The notes beneath the pieces are model-generated. The model ran no database searches, had not been told where the DNA came from, and saw nothing but the letters and a program-made list of their open reading frames with translations. From positions 1-61,516 of the forward strand of contig JBHPGJ010000008.1 in NCBI GenBank assembly GCA_042570545.1: 61,516 nt of DNA, written 5' to 3'. Each line of letters starts with the position of its first letter. Position 1 is the stretch's first letter. The DNA comes from Patescibacteria group bacterium (GTDB lineage: Bacteria; Patescibacteriota; Patescibacteriia; JBHPGJ01). The translations under genes and the position numbers were made by a program. This document shows, in pieces, positions 25,556 to 26,256 of this stretch.

Positions 25556-25589
25556 TATTTGACAACCATATAAAATCGGCTATTATTAC

Positions 25590-25764
25590 CCAGCTGAATC
25601 TTCCCTCTTCCTGTGATCAGGCTTTGTCGTAGTCGGTGACAGACTTCCTCAAATTGCGTCTCAGCTTAATAGCCGGGGATAGTTAATCACCATACGTTGA
25701 GTCTGGTAGCAAAAGAAGATTTAGTTACGGGCGCTGTCGACTGCAAGACAGCGCCTAATTATTT
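25590..25764 (+). ncRNA. Unidentified structured RNA candidate 1
   Basis: Promoter TTGACA-16-TATTAT (25559-25586). 12-bp closing stem AGCUGAAUCUUC/GAAGAUUUAGUU. Inner helices. 9-bp hairpin GGCGCUGUC/GACAGCGCC at the 3' end. Confidence 0.5.
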
Positions 25765-25802
25765 AATTTACTTGACACTGAAAATTATATGTATATAATG
25801 AT

Positions 25803-25976
25803 TCTTCCGACCTAAATCTTTGGTACACGTGCTTTGACGGGTTTTTCAAAGCTAGCTTAAGCATAATGTGACACATAGCTACCTGTCTCACGGTATCAAG
25901 GACAGCTCATCAAAGGGCTGTATCGTTCAAGTGGTCGGCGCCTCGTCTCTGAAACATGGGACGAGGCATTATTTTT
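25803..25976 (+). ncRNA. Unidentified structured RNA candidate 2
   Basis: TTGACA-16-TATAAT (25772-25799). Closing stem CCGACC/GGUCGG. Multi-branched interior. Terminator GCCUCGUCUC/GGGACGAGGC followed by AUUAUUUUU. Confidence 0.55.
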
Positions 25977-25984
25977 ATAAAGAT

Positions 25985-26140
25985 AAAAAACTACTCAGCG
26001 CTACTCTGTGGACAAGAGAACTATTCAAAGGAAGAAGGAAGGTAAACCTGCCTTATCCTCTAAAGGGCTCCCATGCTTGTCGTGTCCACAGAATACCAGT
26101 GAGTAGTAGTTTCAAATAAATATATCCAGTTTTTATGGAA
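25985..26140 (-). ncRNA. Unidentified rod-like RNA candidate 3
   Basis: Minus-strand promoter TTGACA-17-TAATCT with TG extension (26175-26147). Long interrupted hairpin CUACUCA/UGAGUAG, AUUCUGUGGACA/UGUCCACAGAGU, ending in U6. Confidence 0.5.
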
Positions 26141-26256
26141 CAAAAAAGATTATCATATAATAAAGATTATGTCAATAGTATCAGCAAATACAAGAGAAAA
26201 ATCTTGAAAACAAGCAATAATAATGCTAATATTTGCTCACTTAGTAAGGATTGTTT

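Follow-up and report, generated by a model that had tools for sequence, protein, structure and literature searches.

The 61.5-kb stretch of DNA analysed here (the window: positions 1 to 61,516 of contig JBHPGJ010000008.1, from a Patescibacteria group bacterium) contains a non-coding gap between the gene of a VanW/PG_binding_4 protein (vanW) and pepA, which encodes an M17 leucyl aminopeptidase. This gap is the longest stretch poor in open reading frames (ORFs) within the window; HSP20 lies upstream of the block and RuvB downstream of pepA. Three predicted small RNA units occupy it: RNA1 and RNA2 follow each other on the plus strand and RNA3 faces them from the minus strand (Table 1). Taken together, the data make it likely that these are three independent non-coding transcription units, rather than degraded genes or leaders, and that RNA3 is the anchor of an RNA family that has so far not been catalogued.

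Table 1. Features of the vanW-pepA gap and its borders (window coordinates)
Feature	Coordinates	Strand	Remarks
VanW/PG_binding_4 gene (vanW)	23714-25555	+	identified by Pfam; conserved neighbour of the RNA3 family
Non-coding gap	25556-26250		between vanW and pepA
RNA1 promoter	25559-25586	+	TTGACA-16 nt-TATTAT, 11/12; -35 starts 4 nt past the vanW stop
RNA1	25592-25768	+	orphan unit of ~175 nt with rod-like interior
RNA1 closing helix	25592-25603 / 25715-25726	+	12 bp
RNA1 terminator hairpin	25729-25756	+	10 bp, G+C-rich, ~140 nt after the promoter; weak U-tract
RNA2 promoter	25772-25799	+	TTGACA-16 nt-TATAAT, 12/12
RNA2	~25806-25978	+	clade-restricted structured RNA
RNA2 P1 (closing helix)	25807-25812 / 25933-25938	+	
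RNA2 P2 (long hairpin)	25818-25901	+	
RNA2 P3	25902-25921	+	
RNA2 terminator hairpin	25940-25967	+	10 bp, G+C-rich, ~140 nt after the promoter; U-tract to ~25978
RNA3 U-tract	25989-25979	-	rod, then UUUUUAUCUUU
RNA3 rod	25989-26108	-	match to model R1, 97.6 bits
RNA3 internal loop	26070-26084	-	near-invariant, asymmetric; CACGACAAGCAUGGG opposite a single U
RNA3 transcript	~26141-25979	-	AU-rich 5' leader of ~30 nt, 120-nt rod, U-tract
RNA3 promoter	26147-26175	-	TTGACA (26175-26170), 14 nt, TGA (26155-26153), TAATCT (26152-26147)
pepA promoter	26204-26259 region	+	TTGAAA-17 nt-TAATAT with TG; right border of the non-coding cluster
pepA Shine-Dalgarno sequence	26247-26251	+	AAGGA

A first-pass annotation of this DNA had proposed that the gap holds three structured non-coding units, each with its own promoter, and the promoter, fold and terminator signals all agree with this proposal. 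Matches of at least 11/12 to the sigma-70-type promoter TTGACA/TATAAT number seven in the window, against a mean of 2.8 in shuffled sequences; two of the seven sit in the gap, including the sole 12/12 match of the window, and most of the others directly precede genes or lie close to gene ends. The RNA3 promoter, which the automated scan did not list, was read from the sequence by eye, and its layout (TTGACA-N14-TGA-TA(A/G)NNT) is also present in three close relatives of the locus (L081-L083). The predicted folds are strand-specific: -64.6 kcal/mol for RNA1 (z-score -5.5, vs -3.0 for the opposite strand), -68.2 kcal/mol for RNA2 (-8.1 vs -3.8) and -60.3 kcal/mol for RNA3 (-6.4 vs -4.3), the opposite strands folding 13-18 kcal/mol worse in energy. 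The tandem arrangement of RNA1 and RNA2 and the convergent orientation of RNA3 were also correctly described, the 3' ends of RNA2 and RNA3 being within ~10 nt of each other. The units had further been presented as GC-richer islands, which is true relative to the AT-rich promoter spacers but not relative to the flanking genes. At the right border of the cluster, the ATG at 26257, which follows the AAGGA sequence, is a more likely start for pepA than the TTG at 26251 that the mechanical ORF list uses.

The gap contains no credible coding sequence, as had been stated before. Its single ORF, of 83 aa, has no Pfam domain and spans two terminators. We also considered that the gap could be a pseudogene, a decayed gene or a small protein gene and rejected this, because translated similarity to neighbour proteins was absent when the gap was compared by blastx to all ORFs of the loci; the matches obtained fell in the RNA3 segment only, in several frames and on both strands. 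Known non-coding RNAs were sought in turn. At the gathering score of Rfam 15, only transfer RNAs (tRNAs) passed in the window and 12 related loci, the gap being without match, and a scan of the gap at E<=10 returned microRNA or small nucleolar RNA noise alone. ARAGORN found neither tRNA nor transfer-messenger RNA (tmRNA) in the gap, and RNase P RNA was likewise without Rfam match. The earlier statement that the gap matches neither tmRNA nor RNase P RNA, signal recognition particle (SRP) RNA or common riboswitches is borne out by the full Rfam scan and ARAGORN.

RNA3 is part of an extensive, uncatalogued family of small RNAs found in Patescibacteria (Parcubacteria-type genomes). With the window copy as sole nhmmer query, relatives were recovered independently of any covariance model built here: in a sample of 80 Parcubacteria-type loci selected by pepA, homologues were present in 10, always on the opposite strand and upstream of pepA. 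RNA3 is also found in all four close relatives of the window (L081-L084, VanW identity 56-59%), in which the HSP20-VanW ... pepA-RuvB block is kept. A metagenome scan with the conserved RNA3 loop pattern returned at least 120 loci, a set that is by construction chosen by that pattern. A covariance model built from 27 sequences, the window copy included (R1), gave 15 forward matches in the window and L001-L084, 104 in L085-L184, 21 in L185-L204 and 5 in L211-L215, so that the family totals at least ~145 copies in the loci searched. Nearly all of these score ~44-120 bits on the forward strand vs 20-31 bits at the same places on the reverse strand.

The structure of RNA3 is strongly supported by covariation. 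In an alignment of 110 rows, 90.4% of the cells are paired (65.8% after shuffling), double-sided changes are observed in 31 of the 36 base pairs, and the covariation score reaches 0.63, as compared to 0.20 in shuffles and at most 0.16 with slid partners. Three G-U pairs are conserved in helix P3, and they establish which strand encodes the RNA. From base to apex, RNA3 consists of the helices P1 and P2 (~19 bp together), a 10-nt loop (CGACAAGCAU) opposite a single U, a G-U-rich helix of 6 bp and a variable apical hairpin of ~60 nt; an invariant C-G/A-U step and the G-U-rich helix flank the loop. The window copy has all the traits by which the family is defined, namely the rod, the CACGACAAGCAU(GGG) loop, the covarying P1-P6 helices and the minus polarity relative to vanW. 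Invariance of the loop inside the pattern-selected set is circular, and it is therefore given here for 20 unbiased copies: that of the window, 4 from the close relatives, 10 from the loci retrieved with pepA and 5 from loci picked through VanW homology only. The loop CACGACAAGCAUGGG is exact in 19 of them and the one exception is a single C-to-A change. Rfam 15 at E<=10 gave no recurrent family for RNA3 across 10 homologous loci, and literature searches returned no paper with the RNA3 loop sequence and none on small RNAs of Patescibacteria. The search for conserved covarying homologues thus came out positive for RNA3, and the view that the gap is an undescribed non-coding RNA locus of the candidate phyla radiation is upheld by ~145 covarying homologues of RNA3 without Rfam match and by four structured homologues of RNA2.

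The genomic context indicates that RNA3 is a gene of its own. The counts of promoters, T-runs and neighbours given here draw largely on the loop-pattern loci, among the matches listed. A sigma-70-type promoter match of at least 10/12 occurs within 120 nt upstream of 66 of 115 members, compared to 6 of 115 in a control consisting of the reverse complement of the identical upstream stretches. A 3' T-run ends 65 of 119 copies, and in part of the remainder a distinct hairpin follows shortly after. In 86 of 108 cases, the gene that comes next is encoded on the opposite strand; since it is mostly convergent, RNA3 is not a 5' leader. VanW is a neighbour in 56 of 118 copies and converges on RNA3 in 49 of these, at a median distance of 56 nt, and the VanW proteins at these 49 loci are only 30-58% identical to that of the window. 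The linkage also holds at VanW loci obtained independently of the RNA motif: RNA3 was present in 10 out of 10, directly downstream of VanW in nine, and all five loci chosen by protein homology alone carried it downstream on the opposite strand, with an exact loop in four. Other neighbours of RNA3, named by eye from translations, are RNase J with a DAGK-like gene, ClpP, L32, NIF3 and DUF167.

Several further observations were made on the family. A same-strand membrane-protein gene follows RNA3 in some relatives (none does in the window), and a function of RNA3 as a cis-regulatory leader or riboswitch was rejected, because the co-directional genes are unrelated hypothetical membrane proteins without Pfam domain and a convergent gene faces most members of the family. 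In L083, a gene (7093-7368, minus strand) encodes a putative membrane protein of 91 aa, has a strong GAAGGAGGG ribosome-binding site and starts ~20 nt past the RNA3 U-tract; its expression would need read-through of the RNA3 terminator. At L211 (5351-5401) and L214 (5879-5930), the -35 element of RNA3 overlaps that of the divergent NIF3/RuvB operon promoter in a shared TTGTCAA, and the two promoters may be co-regulated or competing. Tandem RNA3 pairs, on the same strand and 6-260 nt apart, occur at 11 loci (L090, L091, L096, L124, L130, L143, L147, L149, L156, L164 and L203), in several of which the upstream copy has the loop CAUAGG instead of CAUGGG. A phage origin of RNA3 was considered since the loop pattern was encountered in 6 IMG/VR contigs and was rejected, as no convincing R1 match was obtained. 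Two of these contigs give weak R1 matches (L207, 36 bits; L208, 27 bits), and the other four contain pattern hits of 85 nt each without R1 match (L205:5629-5713, L206:4340-4424, L209:4002-4086 and L210:325-409). These four hits probably represent a conserved protein-coding segment; in the case that was checked, L205, the hit lies inside an ORF (5379-6029). Finally, five metagenome-assembled genome records that carry the Patescibacteria-type block (L002, L005, L021, L055 and L056) are titled Gammaproteobacteria or Bdellovibrionales, and these labels are probably wrong.

RNA2 has a much narrower distribution. In L081-L084, a plus-strand counterpart of RNA2 always lies tail-to-tail with RNA3, their 3' ends being a few nt apart. 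The promoters of these relatives (TTGACA, TTGACG or TTGCCT, 16 nt, TATACT) occupy the position equivalent to that in the window, RNA2-type transcripts are predicted to start around GCUCGCUCCGG or UUUUCCGAC, and the closing helix, the long hairpin and the terminator are kept. In L084, a 78-aa ORF and GcpE are inserted after vanW and the RNA2/RNA3 pair is still together. The sequences are barely alignable, and the alignment (A6) comprises only five of them, the window and its four relatives, the structure being derived from that same alignment; in it, 82.6% of the cells are paired, vs 68.7% after shuffling and 33-45% in slid controls, double changes affect 17 of 33 pairs, and compensatory changes are kept in P1 and P2. 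We regard these pair counts as moderate evidence for a shared structure. A cleaner test is provided by a covariance model built from the four relatives with the window left out (R3). When both strands of the window were searched with it, one match was obtained in all, which spans 25799-25980 (plus strand; 22.2 bits, E 5.8e-5). No further member was retrieved with the RNA2 model in ~1.5 Mb of related loci; as no member is found beyond L081-L084 and the window, the family looks clade-restricted. RNA2 would thus be a younger, clade-restricted structured small RNA, positioned tail-to-tail with RNA3. A direct interaction between the two was not apparent: whole-RNA and loop-centred duplex energies of RNA2 with RNA3 equal those of shuffles in all five genomes.

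RNA1 has no homologue detectable by nhmmer or by the RNA2 models R2 and R3 in the searched loci. What identifies it is a set of signals within the window, i.e. its promoter, its strand-specific fold and its terminator, and it may be an extra, genome-specific cassette. The predicted internal loop of RNA1 exposes an unpaired CCUCUUCC, and it is tempting to speculate that this motif could pair with purine-rich ribosome-binding sites. The first-pass annotation had suggested that RNA1 and RNA2 are paralogues or pair in trans. Paralogy is not supported, as the local alignment of the two is not significant beyond the promoter and both R2 and R3 skip RNA1. As to pairing, the 9-nt complementarity that had been noticed does exist (AAGAUUUAG at 25716-25724 and CUAAAUCUU at 25812-25820), but it does not stand as a sign of trans-pairing, since 8% of dinucleotide shuffles reach 9 nt; the complementary 9 nt of RNA1 moreover belong to its own closing helix.

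The slot between vanW and RNA3 appears to be a place of turnover. The distance from the vanW stop to the 3' end of RNA3 has a median of 56 nt in the 49 convergent loci vs ~430 nt in the window. Within the clade of the window, the slot contains one unit (L081, L082 and L084), one unit plus a 91-aa ORF (L083) or two units (the window). In L214, an ORF-poor spacer of 725 nt (4978-5701) has plus-strand promoter-like sites at 5016 and 5362 and folds with z-scores of -6.7 and -2.8; in L211, an ORF-poor spacer of 320 nt (4855-5175) folds with a z-score of -5.9. The RNA2 model matches neither spacer. The slot thus seems to gain and lose structured non-coding sequence. RNA1 and RNA2 carry the sole plus-strand terminators detected downstream of vanW, that of RNA1 being the first, and on this account they resemble small RNAs of the 3' untranslated region (3'-UTR) type endowed with a promoter of their own. 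Most simply, RNA1 and RNA2 may be viewed as lineage-specific small RNAs of this type.

Alternatively, RNA1, and possibly RNA2, could be non-functional, fast-evolving by-products, consisting of the vanW 3'-UTR and terminator combined with fortuitous or recently duplicated promoter cassettes. We see this as a real but not the favoured possibility, and one that concerns RNA1 especially: RNA1 lacks a homologue in all searches, RNA2-like sequences can hardly be aligned except in the promoter, at the 5' start and in two helices, and unrelated sequences fill the same slot in other lineages. However, near-consensus promoters are rare in the window and the others stand near gene starts or ends, the folds of both RNAs are strand-specific (z-scores of -5.5 for RNA1 and -8.1 for RNA2), and RNA2 shows compensatory changes in P1 and P2 and has remained attached to RNA3 after the rearrangement in L084.

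How could RNA3 function? We propose that RNA3 is a stable, trans-acting RNA and that its invariant loop would serve as a recognition platform. Across genomes with VanW proteins 30-58% identical to that of the window, the helices have drifted freely and the 12-15 nt of the loop and the adjacent G-U pairs have not. Helix drift combined with loop invariance suggests that the loop is most likely read by a conserved macromolecule, and a protein that is itself conserved is more probable as partner than an mRNA, given that mRNA target sites would seldom remain invariant to such depth. The leading specific model, which we advance tentatively, is that RNA3 is a compact 6S-like decoy of the RNA polymerase holoenzyme: the looped-out 5' strand would resemble a template strand and, with the meltable G-U helix, could mimic an open promoter held between duplex arms of ~19 bp and ~20 bp.

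A number of points weigh against this proposal. (i), RNA3 does not form the two-strand bubble of 6S RNA, its loop having 10 nt on one strand vs 1 nt on the other, next to a 6-bp helix. (ii), its rod of ~120 nt is about two thirds of a typical 6S RNA, which measures 150-200 nt. (iii), the window and 10 homologous loci, scanned at E<=10, yield no match to a 6S covariance model. (iv), an invariant stretch of 15 nt is unusual for 6S RNAs, and the invariance itself is documented in 20 unbiased copies only. As regards the locus as a whole, RNA1, being without homologue, could be a chance or very young unit. Binding of RNA3 to a protein other than the polymerase is conceivable but uncertain. In a broader formulation, to which we also give only limited credence, RNA3 would be an unrecognised RNA of a housekeeping ribonucleoprotein, either a mini 6S-type decoy or the partner of a universal protein, and the spacer beside it would be a birthplace of small RNAs. 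If so, the loop of RNA3 would be under class-wide selection and the spacer would be the site where new, strongly expressed structured small RNAs such as RNA1 and RNA2 keep arising and turning over.

That RNA3 is a regulatory small RNA acting by base-pairing, in which the loop is a seed for an ultra-conserved mRNA start or for ribosomal RNA (rRNA) and the tandem copies are siblings, seems to us rather unlikely. The existence of two tandem copies at 11 loci, as for sibling small RNAs, and the predicted single-strandedness of the loop would fit such a function, and partial complementarities are readily found: the loop ACGACAAGCAUG is complementary at 10/12 positions to a segment of Escherichia coli 16S rRNA, CAUGGCUGUCGU, which we take to be universally conserved, and GCAUGGGG complements CCCCAUGC of E. 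coli 5S rRNA. Yet the loop-rRNA duplex energies are no better than with shuffled rRNA, the complement of the loop is absent from the 61.5-kb window and 1.6 Mb of related loci, RNA3 genes excepted, and mRNA-target seeds are rarely invariant across proteomes that are 30-58% identical. As a separate observation, CAUGGCUGUCGU is part of helix 34 of 16S rRNA, and the other strand of this helix (ACGUCAAG..CAUGG) is similar to the RNA3 loop.

A cis-acting sensor-terminator, in which a ligand or protein would control antisense read-through into the convergent gene, usually vanW, is improbable. The orientation of the downstream genes (86 of 108 convergent, 49 of these being VanW, with a median spacing of 56 nt) would suit such a device, the invariant loop sits within the terminator hairpin itself, and the HMP-PP (thiS) riboswitch provides a precedent for an aptamer embedded in a terminator. 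No alternative antiterminator fold is apparent, however, and the rod is very stable at -60 kcal/mol; in the clade of the window, RNA2 and its strong terminator intervene between RNA3 and vanW, and other copies adjoin unrelated genes (RNase J, ClpP, DAGK-like). That RNA3 is the divergent SRP (4.5S) RNA of the lineage can practically be dismissed: it is a rod of ~120 nt with its own promoter, an asymmetric loop (long 5' side, 1-nt 3' side) and, within the invariant loop, the string AAGCA that is found in helix 8 of E. coli 4.5S RNA, but this string is on the 5' strand and not the 3' strand, the apical third (60 nt) is variable and has neither a GNRA tetraloop nor a symmetric loop near the apex, neither RF00169 nor RF01854 is matched in the window or in the 10 homologous loci even at E<=10, and tandem duplicates exist at 11 loci. 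The remaining probability goes to functions other than a 6S-like decoy, a different protein partner, base-pairing, a sensor-terminator or an SRP RNA.

Patescibacteria, whose genomes are tiny, account for a large part of bacterial diversity, and Rfam and the literature searched contain no catalogued small RNA specific to this lineage. An RNA that has its own promoter, a covarying structure and an invariant loop of 12-15 nt, and that stays in the same gene block while the neighbouring protein falls to 30-58% identity, is unlikely to be dispensable. RNA3 offers a concrete handle, which can be synthesised, on the biology of uncultured cells, and its alignment can be converted directly into a covariance model for genome annotation. 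RNA1 and RNA2 add to the signs that genomes as streamlined as these still give room to non-coding cassettes that evolve fast and have strong promoters.

Comparison with known systems helps to place the three RNAs. The small SRP RNA (4.5S, ffs; RF00169) shares with RNA3 its size, its hairpin-rod shape, a stand-alone gene and a strongly conserved asymmetric loop whose 3' strand has one unpaired base; in RNA3, by contrast, the conserved loop is in the middle of the rod and not adjacent to the apex. Tandem sibling small RNAs (Qrr1-5, PrrF1/2, OmrA/B and LhrC) are, like the RNAs of the gap, short, separately promoted and terminated and clustered in intergenic regions, and they display a conserved single-stranded element as RNA3 does, which itself occurs as tandem pairs at 11 loci. 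Unlike such siblings, the three RNAs of the window show no detectable relationship to one another, searches for complementary targets came back empty, and the conservation extends much further than small RNAs of this sort usually show. DapZ and MicL are 3'-UTR-derived small RNAs transcribed from promoters of their own. RNA1 and the RNA2-like units of L081-L083 are similar in that they start ~5-50 nt past the vanW stop and finish at the first terminator detected after vanW; they differ in that the promoters of RNA1 and RNA2 are located after the coding sequence and not inside it, and the RNA2 homologue of L084 follows a different gene and keeps its place beside RNA3. 6S RNA (ssrS; RF00013), lastly, is also transcribed from a stand-alone gene that has a sigma-70-type promoter and ends in an intrinsic terminator, also folds into a rod that is mostly double-stranded, with an internal loop about midway along it and conserved flanking pairs, and is also conserved lineage-wide and sometimes present in two copies; what sets RNA3 apart from it is a loop that opens on one strand and whose sequence, over 12-15 nt, is almost invariant.

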